From Chlorokybus atmophyticus (Eukaryota; Plantae; Mesostigma and Chlorokybus algae), in assembly GCA_009103225.1 (NCBI GenBank), contig RHPI01002998.1:161525-176949 (forward strand): DNA of 15,425 nt. The letters run 5' to 3'. Both the position numbers and the translations under genes were made by a program. Below the pieces are notes generated by a model. That model saw only the letters and a program-made list of their open reading frames with translations. It searched no databases and was not told the DNA's origin. Below are positions 77-15,425 of this stretch, in pieces. Every line of letters starts with the position of its first letter. Position 1 is the stretch's first letter.

Positions 77-78
<2 letters not shown>

Positions 79-207
79 TATGTCGATGGTGTTGGTTGGG
101 TATGACAGACGGTGACGGTGGTTTGATCTTAGTGGTGTGCATGTGCATGCGTGAGTGGAGAGACACTTTGCTACTGGTTGTGTTCACTTCAGCGTCTGTT
201 GTATAGC

Positions 208-810
208 ATGCAGCCAAGCTGCTTGGTTCTTGTGAGCCCTGACCTGCTGCAAGTAATCCTCCAATCAGTCAGTTGCAAAGACCGCGCGCGCGCCAGCTGT
301 GTCAACAAGGCATGGAAGCAGGCTGCTACTGAGGCTGAAGACAGATATTACCTTGCCAACTGGCCAACATTGGCGGGTGCGGTGAAGGCGCATGTGCAAC
401 TGTGTCACAAGCAGATACAGACCCACCGTGAAGATGAGTGCATCTGCTTTGCACGGTACCCCGGTGGCGAATTGGCCGAGCCGGTGTCAACACTTGAACC
501 AAGCAACAGTTTTCTAACACCTGTGGATGGGCGTGGTATCAAGCTCAACGTGAACAACCGGCTGCATGTGTATGGCCCGGCAAACAAGGAGACTGTGCAG
601 TCTTTCTGTTTCGATGTTAAAATAGATATGTTCTTCGTAAGGCGTGCGGATGGAGAGTTGGTGCACATGCGCCCGCGCCGCTACTGGTTGGCTCAGCTGG
701 AGAGAGATGGCAACGTTATCGCCAGAGGCATTCTGAACTTGGTTACTGAGAGAACATCGGCATGTCCATGGTCGGCATTGGTTGGATGGTCTTTGGCTTT
801 GAGCCTGTGA
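208..810 (+). CDS. F-box domain protein (3' end uncertain; may continue via frameshift or splice into the 762-986 frame)
   Basis: ATG at 208. The N-terminus MQPSCLVLVSPDLLQVILQSVSCKDRARASCVNKAWKQAA fits the F-box pattern L..(L)P.DLL..IL..L...D..R...V.K.W. The rest has no domain I recognise. The overlapping frame 762-986 (GWMVFGFEPVK...GEESEEEKRGFALKHAVW) looks coding, and a GT(742)..AG(822) 81-nt intron is an alternative. Confidence 0.7.
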   Translation: MQPSCLVLVSPDLLQVILQSVSCKDRARASCVNKAWKQAATEAEDRYYLANWPTLAGAVKAHVQLCHKQIQTHREDECICFARYPGGELAEPVSTLEPSNSFLTPVDGRGIKLNVNNRLHVYGPANKETVQSFCFDVKIDMFFVRRADGELVHMRPRRYWLAQLERDGNVIARGILNLVTERTSACPWSALVGWSLALSL

Positions 811-1706
811 AAGTATGCACAGCTGGAGAAGAAAGTGAGGAAGAAAAGCGAGGTTTTGCCCTCAAACATGCAGTCTGGCAACCTCCACCGCAGGTGACAA
901 CCCTGCTTGCAATAGAGCAACTGTTCATGTTAACCAAGGATCGCAAGGATAAGCCCAACTTTATCCAATTCTATGGTTGGTCATGAAATGTATCGCGGCA
1001 GGAACATTAACTCGTGACAGGTCGGTCTTGACACTGCTGTAAGCCATAATGTATAGTAATGCATGACGCTGCAGTGTGAAATGACCTTGGGTTGGGTTGA
1101 CCGAGCATGCAAGAGTGCACACATGTGACTGACAGCACAGCCTTTCCTGAATTGGCTGAGCTTGTTCACCTGTGCATGTGGTGCCGTTCTGCATGTATTC
1201 CACAGCCGGCAATGGCTGTGGAATACACGGACTGCTGAATTCTGTGACTTGATTTAATCCAATCTTGGTTGCATTCATTGTGCCACGTGCATGCTGCCTT
1301 TGCAAGCTAGTGCCATACACATCTGTACATAGGCTTCCCAGTACTATGTACATGCAGTGTACGAAAGTATGTTGCCGGTATGTGCTGTGCTAAGCGCACT
1401 GCAAATGCCAAGTAGCTGCCAGGTTGATGGCAAAAAGAACGTATTGTTCTGAACAGCTACTGGTTTTGAAACTTAGACAGACAATGTCCTTGGACACTGC
1501 ACATGGTACAATGGAGGGGTGACTCTCATGACAGACAAGCAAAGTCAGGTCACCATGTGACGCAAATGCCACTATTGTGCATTCTCTGTCTCTGCTATTT
1601 AGGTCTACCTAGGTCTCATTACATCAGAACATGTGCGCGCTCCACAACAAATATGTATACAACACGCTCGCATACTAGGACCGTGAATGGCGCACACCTG
1701 CCGTGG

Positions 1707-3232
1707 TCACGACATGCGGCTTGTAGGGGCTCTGTGCGTGCGGTTGGCCTTGATGTTGAAGCAGTAGCAGTTTTTCCTGTGTATGCAGTGCCAGCAAGCT
1801 CCGTCCGGACTCTGCTGATAAGTGCCTTCCCCAAGCTGCTTGAGGAATTTTTGGAACGGAAGCCGCACGACAGCCTCCACGCAAGCCTTGCAGAACCACT
1901 TCCTTGTGGGCGGCCGCGTGCTATCAGGGCCCTGAAGTTGACAACAATCAGACATATGGTGCTTTCTTGGACGAGATGCGTGTCATGACACAAACAAGAA
2001 TACCCACCTTGTTCCATGCTGAACATTGCTCTGTGGCGCATACGATGAAACCTCCCTTTCCAGTAAGGTGCCGATTGAACTCAGTAAGTTGGTCTGGTGA
2101 TGCAAACATGGGAACGTTGCAGAAGTGACAGTTCTTTGCCAGGCTTGTTTTGAGTCGCTCAAAGGTATCCCTATCGTACTGGAAGGTTGCTCGCGCTTGC
2201 ACCTGACGAGACAACATTGTTCTTTATCACCATCAAGCGTGGAAACAATGCACTCTGTTGTGCTCTCAAGTTCCTGGATGTTGGCAGCAGCTGTTAAAGC
2301 CGCATTGGTTGCACTGGCTCCACACATACAGTCACCACCCGGCCTACCTGCATGGCTATCCTTCTTCGCTCACGGGGGGTCGGGGCTGTCCACCCAGCAG
2401 GAATCTCAACATCATGAAACTCAAGTTCGCAACTCTTACTTTCCAATCCTGAGTCATGGGCCGGATCACCTGCCATCTCGGCCCATCGTGGCACATCTGG
2501 CACATGGCAGTGTCAGTTGCACGGAACACCCATAACAAGCAGGGGAGGAACAACGCTCCATGGCAGCCCTTCTCACCATTGGACGGGTACGATACTGACA
2601 CTGGCATGGGGTTGTAAAACTGATGCTGCCCAGCCTGGCAAGCATGACACTGTGAGCTGCTTGCTGGCATCAAGCTTGCTGTAGGACAGTAATATGACGC
2701 ACCTGGCCGTCTCTAGTTGGTATAGCTGGCAGGGCTCCATGCATATGACCTGCCATGCAACAAGCATTATTGTGTGACATGCATGTCGATCCAGTGAAAG
2801 TCTACTACCACACGGCACGCGAGCTGATGCCCTCACCTTCAAGCTTTGGCCTTTTGGCACCGTAGGCATGAAAGTTCCGATGACAACCGCATGCGATACA
2901 TCGGACCGCCCCCTGACCCTCCGACGACTCTGGATCAAACTTTTGGCAGCCATCCATGGTCACCGCCCCACCTGCAGGTAACAACTTATGAATTGATGAC
3001 AGCATGCAAGCTGACAGCTCTCACACAAGCACTGCTGCTAAGAAAGCATACCTGGTAGCACGATAGCGCGCTGACAGGCACCAAAGACGTTGGCACCAGG
3101 CTTGAGCTTCTTTTTCTTCTCCCGCAGTACTGACGGAGGCTTGGGAGGTGCCTCGGCAAGCGCCATGGCATCTGACTCACCAACCACCTCCTGTATTGTG
3201 GACGCAAGCTTGTCATGGTCCTCTTCTGCCAT
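1707..3232 (-). CDS. 7-exon protein (~329 aa): N-terminal ZF-HD dimerisation-type zinc finger plus C-terminal PHD/CW-like Cys-rich finger, no homeodomain
   Basis: Exons 3232-3052, 2971-2837, 2749-2703, 2634-2577, 2496-2348, 2202-2008 and 1931-1707 sum to 990 nt. All six introns are GT..CAG (80, 87, 68, 80, 145, 76 nt) with matching phases. The spliced product contains [49 protein letters not shown] (ZF-HD signature DGC.EF...[10 protein letters not shown]) and CHFC...[31 protein letters not shown]. The start codon may lie further upstream. Confidence 0.8.
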
Positions 3233-4303
3233 GCCAGAAGCGACTGAACTCCACTGTATGCTTCCTGCCTGGCCGACTCAACAGTCAGGGTCCTCCTTTG
3301 CAAACAGCAGACTACACGAGCTCTACAACACCCACACATGTAATGGCTTAAAGATAAAGCATTTGTTCACTGGTTGATTGCCTGCATAGCGATGAGAGCC
3401 AGTAAACCATCTCTCAGTGACACACCAAGAAAATGATGTGCTATCCGCGCATGGCAACTATGCAGCAGTGTTTGGCATGATGGTTTGACAAGAAGTGGCT
3501 ACTGTTCTAGGTTTGCAATTCACTAACAAAACCGCTTGATACACAAGGCAACTACACTGCAACATGCGATCGACAGCAGACCGGATGCACACGTCTGCAG
3601 TCATCATCCAACATGCAAAAGCACTACTGTAAGAAGAGTAACCAGGCAAGAGTGGTGCATTCAGGGGAATGGGGCGTACTGACCAACTCGTGGACTGAGA
3701 CTAATAGACGTCTCGCTTACGTATTGCAACAAGAGTGACACGCGTGTTGCATCACAACACTGGCAAGCGAGGTAGGCTTTCAGAGAACACAAGAGAACAA
3801 AGCGCAGAAGTTGAGGCAAAATCAACTGTTGCAGTTGTTTAGCTACAGCTGCTACCAGCACCTGTTGCTCAGGGAGTAGCGGGCATGAGCCCGCCGAGAC
3901 TAGTCAGCTTGTTGACCAGCGACAAGACGAGCCTCCAACAGGCTAGCCAAACACTACACCACACGCTAAAGACGTTCCATCCAGGTAGCTTACAGCTGCT
4001 GTCACTGAAACTAGCTAGCGCCAATGCAGCTGAAGTTTACACCAACGGCAGCTTGATTGCCAGCTTCACAGCAACCTTTTCCATAGCAAATTCTAGACAC
4101 TGGAGAGCAAGGAACAAAGGCTCGCCTCAATAATCACCAGGCGCTCTTCAATAAGCTACGCAAGCATGTAATAACTGGTATTTTTCTGCGTATTTCTCTC
4201 CACCTCCTCCTGCTTGTCCACACCGCCGCCCGACCCAGGCGGGAGTAAGGCGATATCAACCGTCTATTTTGATAACCTTTTGCCAAGCGTGCTGATTTCA
4301 GGC

Positions 4304-4583
4304 AAACCCTAGATGACAAACCCTGCGTTGTCACAACGTTACACTAACGCAGTGCTTGGTAGTTGTCTTCGACGTGCGTCGCCTACCTTTTCATTACGTG
4401 CGTCTCTGATGCACGTTTCAACTTGAAGCCGAAATCGGTTGCGCAGCGCTAACTATGCAAACGGTTGAGATTATCGGCACCGCAAGCCTGCGCAGCTGGC
4501 GGCGCGGCGGATATCCGGGCGATTCGCTGTAAGATGGTTAGAAAATGGGGTTCTTCAACCGCGGTTTCTCCGCCAAATGGGCC
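4304..4583. promoter_or_regulatory. Putative promoter region with telo-box, E2F-like and site II motifs
   Basis: AAACCCTA at 4304-4311 and AAACCCT at 4318-4324. CCGCCAAA (TTTGGCGG on the - strand) at 4570-4577 is followed directly by TGGGCC at 4578-4583. The stretch is CpG-rich and non-coding, ~1 kb upstream of the ZF-HD gene. Short motifs can occur by chance. Confidence 0.35.
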
Positions 4584-6050
4584 ACAAAGGTTACTGACAG
4601 GTTGCAGATCTGATCAAAGTAGCAGTTGATTAACTCTGTCACACGGTTACGGTGAGCGCTAAAGGTGGGTGCTGACTGGGTTGCGGTGGATATGAAATCC
4701 ACCATCCGACGGATGTTGACGCAGCAACTCGCGTGCGAGAGCTTGGCCGCCGTTGGATTCTGTATTTCACTCGCGCGCCAACACTGCCTGCCTCGCAAGT
4801 TTCTCCAGCCTTATCGTTATCGCCGCTCTGCTCAGCTGCCACCAACGATATCAGGCTTGTTGTCGTCCACAGGCCTGGCACATATAATGGGAACGCTCCC
4901 CCCATGTCACCGTTAAATCCAATGTTAGCGGTGATGGCTCTATGCATGTATGGAGCCAATGTGGCTGTTTAGTGCTTGACATCTCAAAAAGTGGCTCTGA
5001 TCGCCAAATTATTTACCCCCCCTCGCCCTCAACAAAGGCTGCTTGCTTGATACAGTAATATCTTAAGTAAAAATGTATGTGATTGTTAACTGTAAAGTAA
5101 ATTAATCAAATACACGTAAACATAATGAAACACATCCCGCTTGTTGCTCCTGCCTACCGCAAATAATTTAAAGCCATCACAAAGCCAATACACATTACTT
5201 GGCAGACACACCGCCACGAGCTTGATGTCGTAGGATGGATGGGCATGTCGTGTATGAAAAAGTCATTAATATAAAACAAAAAAAATCTGCTCGTAAGGTG
5301 GAGGTACAATTACCTGTTATACTTCAAAAGTGGTAGCGTACTGAACTTGAAGAACACAAAGCAAGGTGCGAAAAACCTGTGTGCAGTAATAACACGACAA
5401 ATGGCATATCCATGATGGCTGTAGCGTTTACAGCGATGCGAACCTTGAGCCAAGCGCTACGCATATTATCACGGCGTGACAGGCTGTCGTCGCAAATTTT
5501 ACACGGTGACTGACTAAGGACTGAGGGACTGACTGGTGCCTAAGCCTGTCTGAGCCTGCCTGTTGCTGCCTGAAATATTACTTTTGGACTGTTGGGTTTG
5601 CCGTTGGCTTAAGTGGACTGACGCAGACGGCCGCGGGCCGAAAGTGGTTGTCAGTGGCACTAACCGGCCGAGAGTTGTCAACCAGTTACCCTTTGGTCGA
5701 TGTGCACAGACGGCCGTTAACCGGTAGTTACGGACAGCTGACAGCCATAGCCGGCAGTTTCTTTGCCGTTACACTGCTGTTAATATGTGACCCTTGCCAT
5801 TTGACAAAAGTTGGCAATTCATGCCGTAAGCCAACACTAACATGCCATGCAGCTTGTACAAACCTTGGACTGATTGTTTGATCTTGCACCTAAAAGCCCA
5901 CAATATATACAATGTACAGGCAGTGGTGAGAGTATGTCCACTCACAACTGAGCAGCCGACTTGCGCATGAAACTATCCTATAACATTGAGTCTAGCTGTC
6001 GGACTCATGCGCAGCTTGTCAACCCGTGGTGCCTGCCTAAGAACTCCTCC

Positions 6051-6786
6051 TCAAACCCCCTCCTCCTGTTCCTCCTCCGACGAGTCTTCTGCTTCAACGC
6101 CGGAGTCATCTTCATCCGCTGCCTCGCTCGCTGACAGTACAGCGGCTACTTCGTCCTTCAGCTTGAATGTCAGCGCCTCGCCGTGCACGCGCATGCGCTT
6201 GATGGTCGCTTTGAGAGTGACCACCTGCATTTGGTAATGCTGTAAGAGTGGCGTGCTGCCAGAGGACTAGCCCATCAGCATACACACGCTTACCTCGTCT
6301 TCCGCTTTGTTGCACTCCGCCAGGCAGACAGTCAGCCTGCCGCGCTGCTCTTGGTTCACTCTGACCAACATGGCAATCTGCAAGCATACTGCTTAATTAC
6401 CGCTGGAAACATTAAACTAGGTCATAGATTACCCGTTCGTTTGACTCCGCAGCTTCTCTTTTGCGACTTGTGAGCTCCCGCAAGTAGAAATAGGCTGTGC
6501 ATTTGCGAGATTGGTCATGCTGTTCATGTGCATGACACTGGAGGTTGTGCATGAGGGTGTGCATGTCGTATTGACAATGTATGTCAAGTGCAAGATACTT
6601 GAGGCTGTGCATGTGCAAGATAAAAGAACCCTAGCATGTGGCATTGACAGTGCATCGTAACCCACCTTGGTTATGCCAGTCTTGTTTGGTCCCTTCAATC
6701 ATGTCGCCGTGGTCGCAGCTGCTGGTGGGTCGGATTTTCTTAGAGGCAGTATTGTGGTGTGCCTTTGCCCACTCGGATGGGGAGCC
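6051..6786 (-). CDS. 3' four exons of an uncharacterised protein with a predicted helical region and acidic C-terminal tail; 5' exons unresolved (probably to ~7090)
   Basis: Exons 6786-6666, 6494-6433, 6377-6294 and 6239-6051, with GT..CAG introns of 171, 55 and 54 nt and consistent phases. Translation: GSPSEWAKAH...KQDWHNQ-AYFYLRELTSRKREAAESNER-IAMLVRVNQEQRGRLTVCLAECNKAEDE-HYQMQVVTLKATIKRMRVHGEALTFKLKDEVAAVLSASEAADEDDSGVEAEDSSEEEQEEGV*. Confidence 0.7.
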
Positions 6787-7092
6787 CTGTAAGATATTGC
6801 CCGAGTCACTATTGTCATTGGATATGCCCTTGGTAGTCTTGATGGGGTTTGACACCGAGGACACCCCTCCGGCACCCTGCCCGCCCTGTGCGAACATGAA
6901 ATTCATCCCGGACCTCGACCACAATGCCCACTACGCCCCTGGCAGCGCCGCCAACGATCTTCCAAACGCCACATACCCTCGGCATCACGCCCCTGTAAGG
7001 GCATAGCTTGGCGGAGCTATCAATGGTGTTTTCATGCGCAGGGGGACTGACATTGCCAGAGTTGTCAATGGTACGAACTGCCATTGCCATTG

Positions 7093-7124
7093 TACAAAGG
7101 TACCATTTCAATGGTACCTTTGTA
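7093..7124. repeat. Perfect 15-bp inverted repeat with a 2-nt loop
   Basis: TACAAAGGTACCATT (7093-7107), TC, AATGGTACCTTTGTA (7110-7124). Confidence 0.9.
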
Positions 7125-7181
7125 TAATGCCTATACCTTGGGGCAAAGGCATCTTCGTACCATTGAAACGGTTCAATCAGA

Positions 7182-7205
7182 ATATATATGTATATATATA
7201 TATAT
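7182..7205. repeat. (TA)n microsatellite / TATA-like run
   Basis: atatatatgtatatatatatatat, lying between the two GTAC palindromes upstream of the transposase. Confidence 0.8.
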
Positions 7206-7236
7206 CCAGACTCACCCTGGACGTTCAATGGCTCGA

Positions 7237-7258
7237 TCGTACCATTATAATGGTACGA
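7237..7258. repeat. Perfect 22-bp palindrome
   Basis: TCGTACCATTA|TAATGGTACGA. Confidence 0.9.
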
Positions 7259-7282
7259 CGGAGCCAGTGACTGGCGGCCAAG

Positions 7283-7290
7283 TTTCCCGC
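7283..7290 (+). promoter_or_regulatory. Canonical E2F-type site TTTCCCGC upstream of the transposase
   Basis: Exact match to the E2F consensus ~130 nt upstream of the ATG at 7419. Function is not shown. Confidence 0.35.
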
Positions 7291-7304
7291 CTCTGGCATG
7301 CAAG

Positions 7305-7351
7305 GGTAGCGGTAGCGGTGGCGGTGGCGGTGGCGGCGGCGGCGGCGGCGG
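7305..7351 (+). repeat. GC-rich (GGTAGC/GGTGGC/GGC)n simple repeat in the transposase leader
   Basis: ggtagcggtagcggtggcggtggcggtggcggcggcggcggcggcgg. Confidence 0.75.
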
Positions 7352-7418
7352 GTGTGCGTGTTGCTGGATATGATGCAGGTTACATTGGCGACACCTGTGT
7401 CGACGTTAGTAGTGAGAT

Positions 7419-10400
7419 ATGGGAGTCCTTTGTCCGTATTGCCACATGCGCTTCGCCACACGCAGCTCGGTCTACATGCACATTATTAGCAGCAGGGTGT
7501 GCAAGCAGATCAAGCTGTATGTCGGCCAGCGTCCATTACAGTACGATGCGGGTCATGTTGAACCGGGGAGTTCGATCCAGGATGCTCACATGCTTGATGC
7601 TGAAGGATTCCTCCAGGAGACACACGCACAGCAGCAACAGGAGGAGGAGGAAGTGAACGAGGGCTTTCGATGTGTGCGTGTGCCTGAGAAACCTGTGGCA
7701 CGCCAACATGGAAGTGGAGGCGTCCCTTCGCACGCGTCGGAATCCAGGTGGTATGGCTCGGAGCATGCTCTTGCAGTGGCATTCGTGCAGTGCAACAACG
7801 GCCAAGGCCTGTCGGCCTCCGACATGGGGCGGATCATCAAGTGCATCCGAAATGCACACTTCCTGACGGAAGAGCTCCAGTGGGAGACCGGTGTGCATGC
7901 GGCCAGCTACCTCCGGACCACGATTGCTTTCTCTCAGTCTGAGGTGTGTTCACGGTGTGCGGTGCATGTGCTTCAACCATCAGAGCCATGTCACATATGC
8001 ACATGCGAGTGTGCTGCCGTATCAGAACTACGTGACGGCTGACCTGCGCAAGCCTGGAGACCCTGAGGATCAGGACATCTGCGTCACATATATGCCGGCC
8101 AAGGTCTGTGAAATGCAGTACCTAATGCAGTATCGATGCAGTATCTATTCTGAGGCCAGCATAGTAAGTAATGCTCTTGGTCGGAGCAGGTATGGCTCGC
8201 GCGGTTGTATGGCAATCCACATGCCGCCAATGGCTTCAATCTCCAGTACACTGGTGACGAGCACAGCTTTGGCCATCCTTCCACGGGCGATTGGTGGAAG
8301 GATGTGGAGGTGGATTTGAGGAGAGAGGTGGGGGAAGCGTCCTACTTGGCGCCTGCCATTCTGTACAGTGACAAGACCACGCTGGACAGCGCGGGCAAGC
8401 GCTCTGGCTACCCTCTGATGGCATCGCTTGCCAACTACAGTTGGGACATGTATGCTAGCAACATGGGGGTTGTTATGATAGCGCTTCTGCCGGTGGTTCA
8501 CGCAGTGGCCGGGCATCCCACCTGGGCGCAGGGCAAGGAATCGTTCTCCATTCGGAAACGTGAGATTTTTCATGACGCTTTGAATGTAGTGTTAGGGGAT
8601 GTGAAGCGGGCGAGTTGGGAAGGTCTGCAGCTCATCGACCCGAATGGCATCGAGCGTCGTGTGTTTCCCGCGCTTGCCAACTACATCAGCGATTTGCAGG
8701 TAGTGGGCATGAATGGTTGTAACCGGATGCAGCCCGCCAGCAAACAGTGCATGGAGGATGTTGTCAGTAGAACATCTGAGTTTGTCGTGTTGTAGGAGAC
8801 TGCCACACTCGCACGCACTGTGTCGGGCAACCAAACACGACATCCTTGCGATGTTTGTCTCGTCACCAAATCAGATCTGTTGGAGATGGATGAGGACCGG
8901 GAATTGAGAACCGAGGCCTTCTACACACCAGCAATACGTCAGCTGCGGGCGGACCTGCATAGCGGTGTTAGGAATGCACGCCAGACAGCCAAGGCTTTCA
9001 AAGAGCAGCACTCCATGCATGTCGAGGAGGTAATGGTCAAATTACCGGCATTCGTGAGGATGAATGGCTTTCCGTGAAACCAGGCAATGTGGTTTGGCAA
9101 CAGAATGCACTGTGGGGTTGGCGACAGTCGCGGGTGCCGGGAGCTGACTGCTACTCTCGTCTTGCCCCTGACGCAATGCATGTGCTGGGAGGCATCATTG
9201 ACCACCTGCTTGCTGCTGTGTACGACGCCGCGAAGGAACGAATGCGTCCATCCACGAGACAGATTCTGCAGGCCAGGCACGTCTTTGGTGTTGCTTTTGT
9301 GTTGAACACAAAAGCCAACAACACGTGCTCACGAGCAGATGTGCACAGGCTGAATGCATGCAAGGCGACTCTGCGGGTTTCGCACTTCAAGGCACCCACA
9401 AGCACAGTAGATTTCTTCCTGTCCGACCACTCCTTTCAGGTGGTGGAGAAAGTGGCGGTGCTGCAGCTGCTGCCGGTCCTCGCAGACGGTTTGCTGCTCG
9501 ACAGTGAGGGCAACGATTTCTTCACCATTGCTGCCGCATCGCTTGCCCAGTGGAACAAGAAGTTGCTGAAGGCGCATGAACACACAAGAGAGACCCTGAC
9601 CACAGCCGACAACGAGCTGGCTGCCTTCAAAGCTGCAGTGTTGCATCCGCTACTGTCGTCATATTCTGCACAGAAGTCAGGTTGGAAGATCGAGAAGATG
9701 CATCAGCTCACTCATTTTGGGCCGGCAATTGTCAGCAGTGGACACCCAGATTGGTTCAGCGCCAACCGCATGGAGCAGACGCACGCCCAAAATATCAAAC
9801 GGTGGGCGCGTGGTGGCAACAACCGGGACTACCATGCACGTATCCTGAAGGCATGGAGCTGTGCGGAATATGTGAGAGAGGATGGCATGGTCGTGGATCC
9901 CGAGATGCGCTCGGTCATGGCGCAGGCGCGGCAGCAGTGCTGTAATGTCATGGAGAAGACGGACAAGTTGCTACGGATGGATGTGCTGACAAGGAGGGAG
10001 TCCAGCCCGTACTGGAGCGGATCTGCGCGTAGCCGCCAAGTCGCCTTGAAGACTCCATTTGCCGACAAGCTGCCTGCCACCCTGGACAGCTGGTTGAGGA
10101 GGGAACAACTGGAGTTGGCCGACGGGTGGCGTGCTGTTCGCGTGGTGAACGGAGGCGCAGCGGTGTACATGACATCAGGAGTCAGCATGGCGCGCGCAAC
10201 TGGGATGTTCCATGGGCGGCCTTGGTTCTCTACACTTGAGTTGGAAGGTGATGAGGACGGTGTGAACGTGACGTGGTGGGCTCAGGCACTCCTTTTTCTG
10301 CGCGTGGTGGTGTGGGGTGGTAGCGGCGAGCGCGTGTGGAAGGAGGTCGTGTTTGTCCGCTGGTACACGAAGCTGGATGTGACGAGCGACACAAAGTGCA

Positions 10401-10561
10401 TCGCTCTGGAATGGGAAAAGCGTCGAGGCGGTCCACATCTCGATGTCGTGACTCTGGAGCAAGTAAAAGGCATTGTCCAGCTGCTCCCCATGTTTGACAA
10501 GGACAGCGCCCGTGTACAAGAGGGCAAGTATTGGGTGAACGTTCACTGCACTTCCACGTGA
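7419..10561 (+). CDS. Plavaka-type (CACTA/EnSpm-related) DDE transposase, 6 exons, ~910 aa, with N-terminal C2H-C zinc finger
   Basis: Exons 7419-7943, 8026-8103, 8190-8699, 8796-9029, 9104-9276 and 9349-10561 sum to 2733 nt with no stops. Introns are 82, 86, 96, 74 nt (GT-AG) and 72 nt (GC-AG, in frame). Plavaka motifs appear in order: GDWWKDVE...LAPAILYSDKTT...SGYPLMASLAN; YISDLQ/ETATL...HPCDVCLV; NALWG...APDAMHVLGGIIDHL; WKIEKMHQLTHFGPAIVSSG...SANRMEQTHAQNIKRW; C-terminal WFSTLE...VFVRWY...VKGIVQLLP. N-terminus CPYC...HIISSRVC. Confidence 0.85.
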
Positions 10562-10764
10562 CACATGTACTTGTCTCACTACTCTGAGTTTGGAGCATAT
10601 CAGTCAGTTAGGCATTGCTAATCGTATGCTAAGACTTTTGCATGTGGACGTGTACAATACCGGGCAGCTGTCACTGCACAACTGTCACCACAATCGAATG
10701 ATCCATGCAACATTCAACAATCAGTCCGCCGTGTGGCATTAAGCATCAATACAGTGCACCACAC

Positions 10765-11718
10765 TCAAGCCTCATAGTTCCATGACACAGGAGGGTAGTC
10801 ACAGCGCATATCCATTGTTTCAAGCATGAGACGCCCTATGCACTCCGCCATTGCGGGAGGAACTGCATTCGCTATGGAAACGGCCGAGGTCATCCATGGC
10901 ACTCCCAGCGCTGTTTGCCACGCAGCAATGCCGCCCCTGGTGCTTGGAAGGCCATAGACCGGGTACATCTGCTGTGGCGCGTTTGATGTCACGATTGTCT
11001 TCTTCGCGCTAGCGGACAGGTGCGGCGATAGCAGTCCAACTGCCTTGCCCGCGTGCGAGCAGCGTGCTGGTGGGGTAGCTACCACTGGCTGTGTCTCAAA
11101 CAGACGGTGTCGGAAAGTTGATAGGCCAAACATCGTGCCACAAAAGGACAGTTTGGGTCTGAATGAGGAAGCTGCTCCTAGCACATTCTCAATCACAAAC
11201 TTGACCTGGCTTGCAAGCAGCAGACGTCGGACGAGCGGTATCATATCCTGGTGTCTCCAGGATGTGCCATGTGCCGCCCGTTGAGGTGCCGGGATAGCAC
11301 CTGAATAGGCCTGGCATGGTGGACTGGCCCAGATGAGCTCGTACTCGCTCAGCTCTCCTGCACTCAGGGTGCATACATCGCGGTGTATGAAGGGCAGCGG
11401 GTACTCAGAGGAGGGACTTATGTCCATCCCGGTCACGTCAAAGCCTGCGTGGTATAGACCGACACTGGCACCGCCACCGCCGCAGAATAGGTCGAGTGCC
11501 CTTGGTCTGCGTGTGCGTCCCAGCTTGTTGTCAAATGGCGTGTATGTGGTCAAGGCTGGCCGTGGTGCTGGCCAGGGACTAACAATGATGCCGTCCGGGC
11601 TTACTTTGCGACTGATGTTCTCCCCTCCGGCGCGCAGAACATGGCGTGCCCCGTCAACTGATGTGTACGCATACGTTGTGCCCTTTGAAGTTGATGGTTT
11701 GTGGTCGATCACCGTCAT
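10765..11718 (-). CDS. C5 cytosine DNA methyltransferase catalytic domain, compact bacterial/phage type (probably the last exon of the 12491-start gene)
   Basis: Motif I ALDLFCGGGGASVGL, II GMDI, III FIHRDV, IV IWASPPCQAYS (catalytic PC), VI FVIENV, VIII FCGTMFGLSTFRHRLFE, and IX/X-like LGVPWM...IANAVPPAMAECIG. The frame is uninterrupted. Its true 5' boundary is uncertain. Confidence 0.9.
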   Translation of the reverse strand: MTVIDHKPSTSKGTTYAYTSVDGARHVLRAGGENISRKVSPDGIIVSPWPAPRPALTTYTPFDNKLGRTRRPRALDLFCGGGGASVGLYHAGFDVTGMDISPSSEYPLPFIHRDVCTLSAGELSEYELIWASPPCQAYSGAIPAPQRAAHGTSWRHQDMIPLVRRLLLASQVKFVIENVLGAASSFRPKLSFCGTMFGLSTFRHRLFETQPVVATPPARCSHAGKAVGLLSPHLSASAKKTIVTSNAPQQMYPVYGLPSTRGGIAAWQTALGVPWMTSAVSIANAVPPAMAECIGRLMLETMDMRCDYPPVSWNYEA

Positions 11719-12491
11719 CGAATACTATACGGTGCTGCCCTGCAAAGACATTTTCCATTGCACCATGCATATATGATGCGTCCTCAATCTCGCACGCCAC
11801 GAAGCGATGCTGACCTGACGCTTGCTTGAATGATTCCACAACGCCCGCATACCATTCCCCATCCAGCGGCCAATGCACCATGACACTCACACCGATCAGC
11901 TGCTCGCATCCCAACTTAACTGCGTTCCGCAGCTGATGCAGTGCGCTGTCCAACGGTCGATGGTCTGCCTCCTCTACAGCGGCCAGGGGATGGAACTGCC
12001 CACGCCCACACCGTGCAAGACTGCTCTGAATGCGACAACAGCTTCAACATGCATGAAATAAGCATACGCCCAACATAACATGCAGTGATACGTCGCGGTC
12101 CACTCTCGTGGATTACCTCCACAGCATCCACCACCTGTCCACTAACCACATGTCCCGGTGTTGTCCATGTGAAGAAGCGCATGGGTTCCCCTCGCCACTC
12201 GAAGCATGAGCGCCAGCACGATTCGCACACGCACTGCACGCAATGGAAAAACTCGGGTTCCTTGCACAGCACTTGGCCGAGGCGGCAGCCAAACACGTCG
12301 ACATTGTGTGTGGTGTGATGCCAGCAAGCAGCACTAAAACCGTGGCACACTGTCTGCACTCGCTGGCATTCGGTCAAGTGTGCTCGCATTTGCTGCCTAC
12401 GGCCATTGGCACATACGTACGCATTGCATTGTGGGCACACCAAGCATGGTCTCCTAGGCGAGGGTGATTCAACTGCTGCCGCCGACATCAT
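11675..12491 (-). CDS. N-terminal exons (Cys-rich/C2HC zinc fingers plus Tudor domain) directly upstream of, and probably fused to, the methyltransferase
   Basis: Exons 12491-12117, 12025-11815 and 11739-~11675, with GT..CAG introns of 91 and 75 nt and consistent phases. They contain CPQC...RAHLTEC (C2HC/UBZ-like) and FHCVQCVCESCWRSC. After splicing: LIGVSVMVHWPLDGEWYAGVVESFKQASGQHRIVFDDGDRPQTINF, the plant MSH6/PDS5-like Tudor pattern G..V.V.WP.D..WY.G.V......H.I.(Y/F)DDGD. Confidence 0.7.
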
Positions 12492-12534
12492 GCAAAATAG
12501 GAATCGGCACGGCTGCCCACAAACTGAGCGAGAC

Positions 12535-12583
12535 TTTAGGGTATGGGCATCAATTTAGGGTTGCCAGCTTACGAACCCTAAAT
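12535..12583. promoter_or_regulatory. Telo-box cluster (TTTAGGG x2, AACCCTAAA) forming a 10-bp inverted repeat, just upstream of the Tudor-methyltransferase gene
   Basis: TTTAGGG at 12535-12541. ATTTAGGGTT (12553-12562) and AACCCTAAAT (12574-12583) are separated by an 11-nt spacer. The cluster is 45-90 nt upstream of the ATG at 12491 (- strand). Confidence 0.5.
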
Positions 12584-12629
12584 GGGTCAAACTTCAAGTG
12601 AAGCACGACTGTACCTTATACGCTATTGC

Positions 12630-12684
12630 AGTACCATGCATGGTACTACATCAACATGAATGGTACTCTATCTGTTAATGGTAC
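12630..12684. repeat. 18-bp palindrome plus two AATGGTAC repeats
   Basis: AGTACCATGCATGGTACT (12630-12647); AATGGTAC at 12659-12666 and 12677-12684. Confidence 0.85.
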
Positions 12685-12974
12685 TACAGTACAAGGATAC
12701 TCGCATACTACCACGATCGTAGAGTAATACTGTGCTGTCATGCCATGGAACCCAGAGCGCTGTCCGAGTTTGTTGCTGTCAACCACGCTCTAAACCAGCG
12801 AGGTATGCAAGCCATGCACTGACTCATGCGCCGGGCAGTCATCATACACATGTACAGCCAATGCTTCTAACAACAGCAGATCTCTGGTGCACCATGCACC
12901 ATGCTGCAACTATACATGTACCTACATGGTTCACAGGAAGCCAACACAAAACTACAATACATGCACAATTGGCA

Positions 12975-15400
12975 TCAAGGCGGGGGCCAAATCACCGCCG
13001 ACACGTTGGCGTCTTGCATCAGGCGTGGCGACCAAAACGGGTGAGGTTGCTTGCAGAATGGACACGCTTGTAGATTCTTTGATTTATTTGCCACAGTCTT
13101 CTGATGTGCTATGATGCAGACATGGCACATCGCTTTCTTGCAACAGGGCGTCTCCCCATCCGCTGGGGGGGGGTGGCTCTTCAATGCGACAGATCAGCAC
13201 ACATGGTGCACGCGGGTGTGCAAGCTGCCTCTGCCACCAAACTCTGTTATCGCGTCGCAGGCGTAGCGACTCCCATCTGAATGGCGCAGCATAACGCTCC
13301 ACTGCCTGCTCGATCACCTGACGCCCATCTGCCGCCATACACCACCTGCTGGTCTTGGTGGTCTCGTCCAGCATGCGTTCATCCAGGCCCTCGACATGGC
13401 TGTCGTCACTCGTGTACTCCCCCGCATCGTCATTTTCTTCGAGCTTCCACAGAATCAGCTCGACGTGCCGTATGACATACAGCCACTGCCAGCCAAAGCA
13501 TGCCAAGTACAGCTCGAATGGTTTTACTTGCCACCCAGTATGTTTGCTCAAGTAGTGGCACACATCTCGACCCGCATTAGTCGACATCGACAGGTACATC
13601 TGATGCAGCAGGTCGAAGTTCTGCTCCGCAGATAGCTCTTGCACATTGCCGGGGTGCTGCGGCAGCAACAACACCATCATATCGAGGACGGCGAGGGGCA
13701 ACAACGTACTACGGATGGCCATATCGTGTATGGGTTCCAACCACGGCCAATCCCCAGAGGTCTGTTTAGACCGCATTCTCCGCGTTTGCTCCCACTTATT
13801 GCAAACTTTCGTCACCCACCTCGAGGCATGCCGCATGCGGTGATGCAGCGCGTCTTGGGCGTACTGTAGGGTGATCAACTCCTTTGCACTACGAGTCAGC
13901 CCCCCAAAGCGTCTGCGCGTCGGTGCTTTGAGCTTAGGCAGCTCGTGCCGCACCGGCTGTCTCTCTGGACGATGCTGAGCAGCCACTTGACGCTGTAAAC
14001 CCGCCTGTGCCTACTCAGGACACACAGTCAGCCCCAGTGAGGCTTCAAGGCGCTGTGCTTCTTCTAATGTTGTAACGATGCCTCACCTTTCCTTTTTTGG
14101 TCCTGTCAGCGTCCTTTGTTCCAACAACCTTCTTCTTTTTTTTTTTGTCACCCTGCACATCCTGGCAGGCGCTCTCCGTGGCACTGTCACTCAGAGGAGG
14201 TAAGGCGTTATCTTCTTGCTCCACAGCCTTGCGCTTGTTGGTTGCCTCCCGTTCCTCCACGACCTCATGTTGCTTCATGAGGTCGAGCATGAAGCCTTTG
14301 TCTTTCAGCGCAGCTTTCAGGACACCTCGATCAATCTCTTTACCAACAAGACAGGCTGGGATCAATGTGGCAAGCTTAGAGGGAGAGGGCGAGCTACAGC
14401 TGCTTCTTGATGGAGATGCCTCCGGATGGTCAGAGTGCGGTGGCAAGTGAGTCTCCGCGGCAGGAAGGGAGGGTGCTGAATTGGGATTGCGAGCATGTGG
14501 CTGTGGTTGAGGGGAGGCAGGATGTGCAGAACACTCGGCTACTTCTTGCCTAGCACACGAAGGCGAGGCCTGAGGCGTTGGCGCAGCACTCTGGGTCACA
14601 GCCGGTGGTAGCGGGGAATTGGCAACGCCATGCCGCCACTCTCCGATCAGGTGTGTTACCTCCGGTGGCACTTCATGCATAGGCCACGACCACTGTTCGG
14701 TGCTTGCAGGCTTGAGGAGCCAAAAGTGTGCTTCTGGCTCATCAGGAGCAGTGTTGCCCACCACCAGGACTGAGTTGGGGGCTTCTTTATTTCCAACCCA
14801 AACTGCGCTGCCGGGCCGTGGCACCCACTCCCCATGCTCGCGCTGAACGGTCACGCAGCCAATCAACAAGCCCAGCTTGTTGGCAAACATGGTCATCTGC
14901 AGGTGCTCGACGTACACATCTTTTCTCCGCACGATCTGTCGCACCTTGGCCATGGCTAGGTCAATGTTGCAGTTGATATCAGCCAACATGGTCGCAGGCA
15001 GTTTGTCGTAATACTGCGCCATCTCTCCCGCGGCACCAGTGGCTCTGCAGAAGTCTAGGATTCTGCTCGCCACGCCTGCATCGACAGCCTTGGCGGTGAT
15101 TTTGCGGAGAGTGTGCCCCCTGCCGTCGTCGTCCATGGTGTCCAGCATGGCCCAAAATCTGCTCGAGCTGGGGCACTTGTGATCATCCAGGACACTTTGC
15201 GCTATGGATGGCCTGGCGCGAAATACACAATGGTAGAAGCAGTTACCATCCGTTGGCGCATTGAAGTGGTCCCATGAGGCGAGCTGGCCACCTAGCATGC
15301 CTGATGGCCGTATGCGGGTTGCGGCCAGCTCCTCTGATGTCTCGCTGGCAGGTGGTGACCCCTGCTGCATGCGCATACAGCACTCACATGGTGTGTCCAA
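12975..15400 (-). CDS. OTU-like cysteine protease (deubiquitinase) with Pro/Ser-rich linker, Lys-rich NLS-like stretch, unknown domain and C-terminal RING-like finger (~780 aa in window; 5' end outside window; one frameshift in a C9 run)
   Basis: Exon 15400-14087 has HFNAPTDGNCFYHCVF (OTU catalytic D..C) and a late EAHFWLL (catalytic His). An 82-nt GT..CAG intron (14086-14005) joins it in phase 0 to 14004-~13170. Removing one C from the 9-C run (G at 13165-13173) gives PCVLICRIEEPPPADGETPCCKKAMCHVCIIAH...QACPFCKQP, a RING-like pattern, ending at the stop 12975-12977. An acceptor-like CCACAG precedes 15400. Confidence 0.75.
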
Positions 15401-15425
15401 CTGTGGACGGCAAGAGTCACAGTGA

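Follow-up and report, generated by a model that had tools for sequence, protein, structure and literature searches.

Evidence for a Repeated Plavaka DNA Transposon in Chlorokybus atmophyticus with a Tudor-Fused C5 Methyltransferase Gene and an OTU-Like Gene

The presence of a Plavaka-type transposase gene among genes with apparently chromatin- and ubiquitin-related domains in the alga Chlorokybus atmophyticus raised the question of which of these genes move with the transposase and what they might do for the mobile DNA. Transposons with chromatin enzymes offer one of the rare direct views of how mobile DNA resists or exploits silencing by its host; according to a preprint on the red alga Bostrychia (bioRxiv 10.1101/2025.02.11.637652) a mechanism has been demonstrated only for VANDAL. 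The analysed window is a stretch of 15,425 nt of contig RHPI01002998.1. A sequence-only reading had proposed that positions 208–15425 form one mobile unit in which the transposase lies among five cargo genes.

Comparison with contigs of other runs revealed a repeat boundary at 5487/5488, which contradicts the single unit. Sixteen contigs entered from other flanks at 5483–5488 (six of run X1, nine of X3, and one of X5), and all except one matched the window only from 5487 or 5488. The letters 5′ of these starts were dissimilar, with a consensus agreement of 0.53–0.61 (five contigs of X1 and nine of X3, plus one at 5483). The summed contig depth, which does not equal copy number, rose sharply across the boundary: over the 10 bins to the left of 5197 it stayed at or below 1.65 (X1) and 0.98 (X3), and over the 19 bins to the right of 5708 at or above 70.5 (X1) and 130.8 (X3); zero-depth flank bins in X1–X4 were not counted alone as evidence. 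No contig of runs X7 and X8 matched the window. Copies of the Plavaka element at different sites share an abrupt end, shown here for the left side only. Since contigs overran the right end of the window, the element extends past 15425. We are confident that 5488–15425 (9.9 kb) is the left part of a repeated Chlorokybus transposon of the Plavaka (CMC/CMCT) type, the whole being at least that long.

The left terminal region (5488–5562, plus strand) has the PlavakaB-like terminus CGTCGCAAATTTT and short subterminal GGACTGA/GACTGAC repeats. Contigs that diverged at 5531–5562 likely come from the other element end or belong to a related family. The window contained no long pair of inverted repeats, the terminal 23-mer had no match in metagenome contigs, and an Rfam search of the window returned nothing. 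Joint presence of the element genes was seen on contigs of other runs: one of X2 covered 9602–12120, from the transposase into the methyltransferase, one of X1 covered 12140–13459, from the methyltransferase into the 3′ part of the OTU-like gene, and the eight X1 contigs listed between 5945 and 14533 had depths of 84–113. Among the matches listed, the element differed from the X2 contigs at 24 of 7386 nt and from the X1 contigs at 13 of 5354 nt. Such a low divergence (0.2–0.3%) suggests a recent burst, and the cut-and-paste mode of movement is deduced from the transposon family. The repeated element was likely mobile in recent times and is likely still able to move.

The two genes left of the boundary are likely ordinary host genes. 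The F-box gene (207–957, plus strand; CDS 208–810) encodes a domain scoring 26.2 bits, and its X5 contig extended 30 letters beyond 207 in the 5′ direction, likely from an exon that lies outside the window. The ZF-HD-dimer gene (1590–4174, minus strand) comprises eight exons (CDS 3232–1707, 329 aa), and its seven GT-AG introns were joined in X5 with no differences. The ZF-HD_dimer domain (47.2 bits) was the sole domain above cut-off in the spliced product, which is identical to the annotated C. atmophyticus Chlat1 protein 3688 and belongs to a one-member cluster. Both domains named by the sequence-only reading are therefore real, but they lie outside the element, and a spliced, annotated, single-member ZF-HD gene is the kind of neighbor that this reading had itself named as speaking against cargo. 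Its RING-like domain, presumably at 2440–2682, is partly intronic, and the RING and PHD frames at 1707–2682 were dropped once the X5 exon joints were seen. Four genes, not a transposase with five cargo genes, remain in the element within the window. This copy of the element is located 1.3 kb upstream of a host gene that is transcribed. Run X5 is RNA by guess only; it covered almost nothing of the transposase and methyltransferase genes, and uncovered parts are no evidence of silence.

The transposase gene (7419–10561, plus strand) proved intact, as had been claimed: the six-exon model encodes 910 aa with no internal stop, and PF18759 matched at 8172–8792 with 82.4 bits (cut-off 26.3). The five introns, predicted to be spliced, measure 72–96 nt, one of them being GC-AG. 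Residues D262, D369, C389-x2-C, D472-x2-H, H625-x3-H, and E649 aligned with those of 10 homologues. They agree with the definition of Plavaka given in PMC12730594, a D, D, E triad in which C(2)C and H(3–4)H stand between the second D and E. The nearest relatives, from Closterium, Chara, and Calypogeia, shared 27–29% identity in the best stretch. The assignment to a subgroup is less clear-cut. The termini of PlavakaB read 5′-CATCA..TGATG-3′, and 27 of the 28 fungal termini listed in the supplement of PMC12730594 start with CATCA and one with CATCG; the left end found here, CGTCG, is similar and differs in two purines. The element was not filed as PlavakaB because its terminus is similar, not identical. 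PlavakaA (5′-TGT..ACA-3′) was rejected: a TGT occurs at 5485, but the boundary contigs, with the one exception, match only downstream of it.

Downstream of the transposase gene, on the minus strand, lies a C5 DNA methyltransferase gene (10765–12491, three predicted exons) encoding a Cys/His-rich N-terminus, a Tudor domain, and a phage-type C5 domain, about 520 aa in the run consensus. The enzyme domain scored 25.5 bits with PF00145 (cut-off 22), matched phrog_363 at E 1e-26, which makes it phage-type, and retained the SAM-binding DLFCGGGG, the PC catalytic motif in SPPCQ, ENV, and the R-x-R of RHRLF. The claim of a C5 methyltransferase holds in this respect, although it overlooked a frameshift at 11670 that splits the gene in the window copy. 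The break is upstream of the C5 domain, and the frame is open in runs X1, X2, and X3, which have two more bases there. The Cys/His-rich exon 12117–12491, formerly read as PHD/CW-like, had no match in Pfam, PHROG, or PDB.

The RDM15/PDS5-type Tudor domain (11680–11893, minus strand), split by a predicted 75-nt intron at 11740–11814, was corroborated by its best PDB match, 7DE9 (E 0.0011). In Arabidopsis RDM15 the reference residues are the cage W616, Y623, and Y641, plus D643 and D645; across the predicted intron, W, Y, F, D, and D stand at these positions (616, 623, 641, 643, and 645). Five of the seven peptide-contacting RDM15 positions are kept or conservatively replaced, while the H3R2-binding E647 and Q654 are replaced by P and G in an ungapped count. 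On this residue pattern, the Tudor domain is predicted to bind H3K4me1 nucleosomes.

The nearest named relative of the methyltransferase is Klebsormidium nitens GAQ92615, with 47% identity over 170 aa. These nearest relatives (the GAQ92615 cluster, P0002) carry an inserted MBD, which implies that this group of enzymes gained a chromatin reader more than once. No closer host copy was present among 7999 candidates of 175–559 aa, and IMG/VR contained four loci at 35–54%. In a quick tree of 55 rows (53 of 120 matches, the window protein, and the first 315 aa of P0200), from which no donor is claimed, the window protein grouped on a long branch with Klebsormidium-type and long-insert proteins (11 rows, SH-aLRT 95). 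None of the 80 metagenome loci of P0001-like methyltransferases (kept of 117, the Klebsormidium locus not included) matched the transposase, the OTU-like gene, the Tudor part, or seven Plavaka homologues. CpG accounted for 5 of the 16 C/G-loss differences scored among the 40 rows shown, against a background of 21% (p 0.23); without an excess, the decay pattern does not point to CG methylation.

The OTU-like gene (13084–15376, minus strand) combines an OTU domain, a low-complexity linker, and a basic tract, and would gain a 300-aa domain of no known family if the predicted intron 14011–14086 were spliced; one unspliced X5 contig (14007–14655) retained it. The first ESM Atlas match of the OTU part, with a score of 0.93 and 188 of 256 features in common, was a cluster in which 20% of the members bear OTU, and two of the top OTU clusters were of Nucleocytoviricota. 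In this part a DGNCF Cys motif is followed further on by a His; the PDB matches were weak (E 0.22) and lay on the Cys motif. Searches of the OTU part against Pfam and of the OTU exon against 7991 candidates returned no homologue, a single-sequence fold of the OTU part, whose pLDDT of 37.8 is too low to be informative, found no Foldseek match at E 0.001, and the 300-aa C-terminal domain had no usable Atlas match. The earlier OTU assignment is thus retained as likely, and the gene likely encodes a deubiquitinase, as judged from the Atlas score and the Cys and His motifs. The broader claim still stands: a host of the green lineage harbors a large element of the Plavaka type, whose cargo includes a writer of methylation and, likely, a ubiquitin enzyme.

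The fourth gene, a predicted four-exon model without a family (6051–6906, minus strand), encodes 191 aa with a coiled-coil-like part and an acidic tail; two of its exon frames had no Pfam match. Between it and the divergent transposase gene are six ATGGTAC motifs, some as inverted pairs (7068–7256), and four more lie upstream of the methyltransferase gene (12631–12684). The window contains 11 such motifs against 1.54 expected, a number reached by none of 200 shuffles, and 10 of the 11 fall in these two non-coding regions of the element.

Altogether, we favor, by a little over even chances, a likely still mobile Plavaka element whose Tudor-fused methyltransferase, predicted to bind H3K4me1, would methylate the element's own new copies. 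A new copy would insert into gene-rich chromatin, where the Tudor domain might retain the methyltransferase on local H3K4me1 nucleosomes. The enzyme would then deposit 5mC on element DNA, possibly in or close to the ATGGTAC clusters of the two promoter regions; the mark could tune the expression of new copies, while the OTU protein may remove ubiquitin from chromatin or from element proteins. The Tudor-steered self-methylation itself remains tentative, its chances being somewhat below even. A bolder version is rather unlikely: in an active nuclear cut-and-paste transposon of the earliest-branching streptophyte lineage, a phage-derived C5 methyltransferase steered by a plant H3K4me1-reading Tudor and a deubiquitinase would act as a reader–writer–eraser kit on the ATGGTAC promoters, so that new copies mimic host gene bodies and escape silencing, with the Klebsormidium MBD fusion as a second independent case.

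An unlikely alternative, though one to be taken seriously, is anti-silencing of the VANC type, in which an element protein binds ATGGTAC and the cargo keeps copies active: the OTU protein would strip repressive ubiquitin, and the methyltransferase would write a gene-body-like mark or itself serve as a decoy. A known domain for sequence-specific DNA binding was found in none of the element proteins, and the GTAC core of the motif could presumably be a site for a host SBP-box factor. The confinement of the motifs to two non-coding regions does resemble that of VANC motifs in VANDAL (PMC5735166), but the latter have one orientation and the ATGGTAC set includes inverted pairs. CG methylation is reported to mark active gene bodies in Klebsormidium (PMC5890265), and a like role for Plavaka accessory genes is proposed in the Bostrychia preprint. 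The methyltransferase and OTU genes might instead be passive cargo, captured once and carried without benefit by a recently amplified element. The frameshift and a 1-base difference near the 3′ end of the OTU gene in the window copy fit such a view, selection is not measurable here in so young a family, and the transfer of TET/JBP genes between transposons is described as frequent but passive (Kojima, PMC12730594). It is nevertheless improbable, as the catalytic and cage residues are intact despite 47% identity to the nearest relative, and the enzyme gained introns and a plant-type Tudor with no closer host copy among the candidates.

Two further readings concern the nature of the whole region. 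In the first, the transposase would be a passenger in, or a flank of, an endogenous fragment of a giant virus or a tandem "giant repeat", as in Amoebidium, where intron-poor giant repeats are flanked by Plavaka transposases; the phage-type enzyme, the Nucleocytoviricota OTU clusters, and the end of the seen sequence at 15425 leave it some room. It is very improbable here given the sharp transposon-like terminus in many flanks and the predicted short host-like introns in all four genes. The 28 frames scanned in the window held no viral core gene, which weakens this alternative already raised by the sequence-only reading, and the transposase exon, like P0003, gave no confirmed match among six IMG/VR candidates. 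That the whole of 208–15425, including the F-box and ZF-HD genes, is a single mobile unit is hardly credible: all genes seemed chromatin- or ubiquitin-related and an older, larger element might be imagined, but the boundary at 5488 and the host character of the ZF-HD gene argue against it.

Returning to the favored self-methylating element, it is a compact testable case: its small methyltransferase has a histone reader whose binding residues map to a solved structure, there is a candidate target motif, and a cultured alga at the streptophyte base provides near-identical copies. It also suggests how methyltransferases of prokaryote type could acquire chromatin readers within transposons. The element does not found a class of its own. 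Red algae and fungi are already known to have giant Plavaka elements with epigenetic cargo, and algal retrotransposons to carry C5 methyltransferases; we found no report of the same cargo set in a nuclear cut-and-paste element, and the supplements of the preprint may list a Chlorokybus Plavaka.

The giant Plavaka elements described in that preprint from Bostrychia and other florideophyte red algae are likewise large (17.4–19.1 kb), with three accessory genes, some of them predicted DNA or chromatin modifiers, and with short inverted-repeat arrays beside an accessory gene, as here. Most of those copies are degenerate, and the cargo comprises one gene for an N6-adenine methylase plus SET, one for a ParB-2OG oxygenase, and a third, unknown one, whereas the Chlorokybus element carries the C5 methyltransferase with Tudor, the OTU-like gene, and the small acidic gene in near-identical copies in a streptophyte alga. 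Fungal PlavakaB elements, with or without TET/JBP (Kojima 2025, PMC12730594), share the C(2)C and H(3–4)H motifs of the DDE transposase, and their termini CATCAGCAAAA and CATCACAAAATTTT resemble CGTCGCAAATTTT; they carry a 5mC oxidizer, the Chlorokybus element a writer. An OTU gene is carried by Helitrons (PMC11417382) and short motifs are clustered in non-coding parts of VANDAL (PMC5735166), both of other superfamilies, and no VANC-like domain was found in the Chlorokybus element. Mariner-1_OLpv (PMC3627910) is also a DNA transposon encoding a C5 methyltransferase, but it has a viral location and an EcoRII-like nuclease partner, and that source describes no chromatin reader for it. K. nitens GAQ92615 joins a methyltransferase to a chromatin reader too, but as an MBD inserted within the enzyme. 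The DNMT retrotransposons of Symbiodinium and Klebsormidium (PMC5890265) are algal elements with a C5 methyltransferase for which self-methylation was proposed and de novo CG methylation demonstrated; their carriers are LINE, DIRS, and Gypsy elements, those of Klebsormidium having intronless Dnmt3-type domains, in contrast to the separate, spliced, phage-type enzyme with a Tudor domain on the DDE DNA transposon of Chlorokybus.

Contigs from four sequencing runs were aligned to positions 77–15425 of the window, runs X1 and X2 representing one sample and X3 a second study; X5 and X6 were compared as well. The sequence-only reading had taken nearly the whole stretch as one mobile unit, and these alignments placed the left boundary of the repeated Plavaka element at 5488. 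The match set in at 5487/5488 in five X1 contigs (at 5483 in another) and in nine X3 contigs, with one further flank at 5487 in X5, and the 5′ letters of the X1 and X3 boundary contigs differed from the window and from one another (agreement 0.53–0.61). None of the 10 bins left of 5197 exceeded a summed contig depth of 1.65 in X1 or 0.98 in X3, and each of the 19 bins to the right of 5708 reached 70.5 or more in X1 and 130.8 or more in X3; contig depth is not copy number and some flank bins were simply uncovered, so the boundary argument rests on the flanks. Roughly, tens of copies would be present. Single contigs linked the transposase to the methyltransferase (X2, 9602–12120) and the methyltransferase to the OTU-like gene (X1, 12140–13459). 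Since contigs extended over the end of the window, the element spans at least 9.9 kb. The few differences between the window and the listed contigs (24 in 7386 nt for X2, 13 in 5354 nt for X1) suggest a young family. X6 gave short pieces scattered across the element and nowhere else in the window; of the 23 pieces, 14 were less than 95% alike. One X5 contig joined at 13495 to 158 foreign letters with a poly-A end, which may stem from a retroelement insertion in a different copy.

The left terminus of the element is CGTCGCAAATTTT. According to Kojima, PlavakaA ends are TGT..ACA and PlavakaB ends CATCA..TGATG; 27 of the 28 PlavakaB ends listed from the supplement start with CATCA and one with CATCG, two of them being CATCACAAAATTTT (PMC12730594). 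The terminus is similar but not identical to these PlavakaB ends, and no inverted copy of it was found within the window. Contigs of X1, X3, and X5 shared its first 45–75 nt and then diverged at 5531–5562, two of them continuing into CTGACCCTA-like repeats; they may represent the right end, a related family or a non-autonomous derivative.

The host genes outside the element, F-box (207–957) and ZF-HD-dimer (1590–4174), were matched by X5 contigs with 0 differences. The first 76 nt of the window are all G, which is likely an artefact of assembly or sequencing, or a gap. The X5 F-box contig carried 30 letters 5′ of 207 that are absent from the window, hence the first exon likely sits beyond the G run. 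A protein search with the ZF-HD exon returned a single match, C. atmophyticus Chlat1/3688, identical across the query and the only member of its cluster; its 329-aa sequence equals the product derived from seven introns joined in X5, which identifies Chlorokybus as the host. The ZF-HD-dimer protein (1707–3232, minus strand) has a Cys-rich C-terminus without a Pfam match and no homeodomain match, an architecture unusual for the plant ZF-HD family. Its 593-nt 5′ UTR intron (3263/3267–3861) showed two acceptors 4 nt apart in X5 (depth 195 vs. 3), and two upstream AAACCCT motifs (4304–4324) resemble plant telo-boxes. Genes of the window contain introns, and GC is about 50–55%. Chlorokybus is an early-branching streptophyte alga with an 85 Mb genome containing 31.3% repeats (PMC7027972).

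The transposase (7419–10561) passed the PF18759 Pfam profile, and its six-exon model encodes 910 aa without stops, the GC-AG intron being backed by an alignment spanning the junction. Its D, D, C(2)C, H(3)H, and E residues aligned with 10 homologues of 21–25% overall identity. A search with the last exon revealed 59 relatives with E-values no higher than 0.001; eight of the top nine were looked up and came from Closterium (six), Chara (one), and Calypogeia (one). Another annotated Chlorokybus Plavaka, P0154, is 21% identical to this transposase. The Chara braunii model GBG85192 (2125 aa) unites a histone-fold domain with a Plavaka transposase, which may reflect histone cargo or a fusion made in annotation.

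The methyltransferase gene (10765–12491) combines a Tudor domain with a downstream catalytic domain of a short prokaryote/phage family (3480 matches among 7999 candidates; phrog_363), in which every checked motif is kept. The best solved relative of the Tudor domain was 7DE9, Arabidopsis RDM15 bound to H3K4me1 (PMC8184781), matched without gaps across a predicted 75-nt intron; the cage and acid positions are W, Y, F, D, and D, and those of the RDM15 H3R2 contacts are P and G. The Cys/His-rich first exon had no family match in Pfam, PHROG or PDB. In the window copy the frame ends at 11654. X1, X2, and X3 have two extra bases at 11670 (96.7/96.7, 7.22/7.22, and 157.8/161.7), which restore a single frame of about 520 aa; the family thus has an intact fusion, of which the window carries a damaged copy. 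The two best methyltransferase matches carry an inserted MBD, and one clusters with Klebsormidium GAQ92615. In such Klebsormidium-type proteins (P0200/P0001/P0002) the catalytic domain is interrupted by the MBD; the Klebsormidium gene lies on a 17-kb contig and may also be transposon cargo. A clade of unnamed 340–373-aa methyltransferases (P0003, P0005, P0009, P0015, P0033, P0076) has a long insert at this position too, and no relative of P0003 was found in IMG/VR.

In the OTU-like gene (13084–15376), residues 20–260 of the frame 14048–15424 had OTU-bearing clusters as best Atlas matches (0.93), and PDB matches around the Cys motif were weak (E 0.22); Pfam gave no match, and 0 homologues were found among 7991 candidates. 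A predicted intron would link this frame to a 308-codon frame, for which no known family was found; as the sole X5 contig there retains the intron, the two may be separate. The small gene (6051–6906) is predicted to encode an acidic, coiled-coil-like protein of 191 aa. The window contains 11 copies of ATGGTAC where 1.54 would be expected, and 0 of 200 shuffles reached 11; the shuffle result somewhat overstates significance because the motif was picked by eye before testing. The clustering is plain: 10 of the 11 fall into two non-coding groups, one upstream of the transposase, the other upstream of the methyltransferase.

In the most likely reading, the element moves by cut and paste and the Tudor domain would hold the methyltransferase on H3K4me1 chromatin, so that the element's own copies would be marked; the OTU protein would strip ubiquitin from chromatin or element proteins. 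That such cargo limits the element itself fits this anatomy and is a tentative reading, somewhat short of an even chance. The same anatomy would accommodate cargo that counters silencing, which we consider rather unlikely. Against both proposals stand the lack of CpG excess in decay (5/16, p 0.23) and the finding that 0 of 80 related methyltransferase loci adjoin a Plavaka gene.

Neither a C5 methyltransferase–Tudor fusion nor an OTU in a Plavaka element was reported in the openly accessible papers that the literature search covered. Plavaka has already been described from streptophyte algae (PMC13519894), and the separate kinds of cargo are familiar: C5 methyltransferases lie inside algal retrotransposons (PMC5890265) and a viral Mariner (PMC3627910), and OTU is carried by Helitrons (PMC11417382). 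In orphan DNMTs companion domains are mostly absent (PMC12344493). Amoebidium has giant repeats with Plavaka flanks, fungal Plavaka occurs with TET/JBP (PMC12730594), and in red algae giant Plavaka elements carry methylase, SET, and oxygenase genes (bioRxiv 10.1101/2025.02.11.637652).
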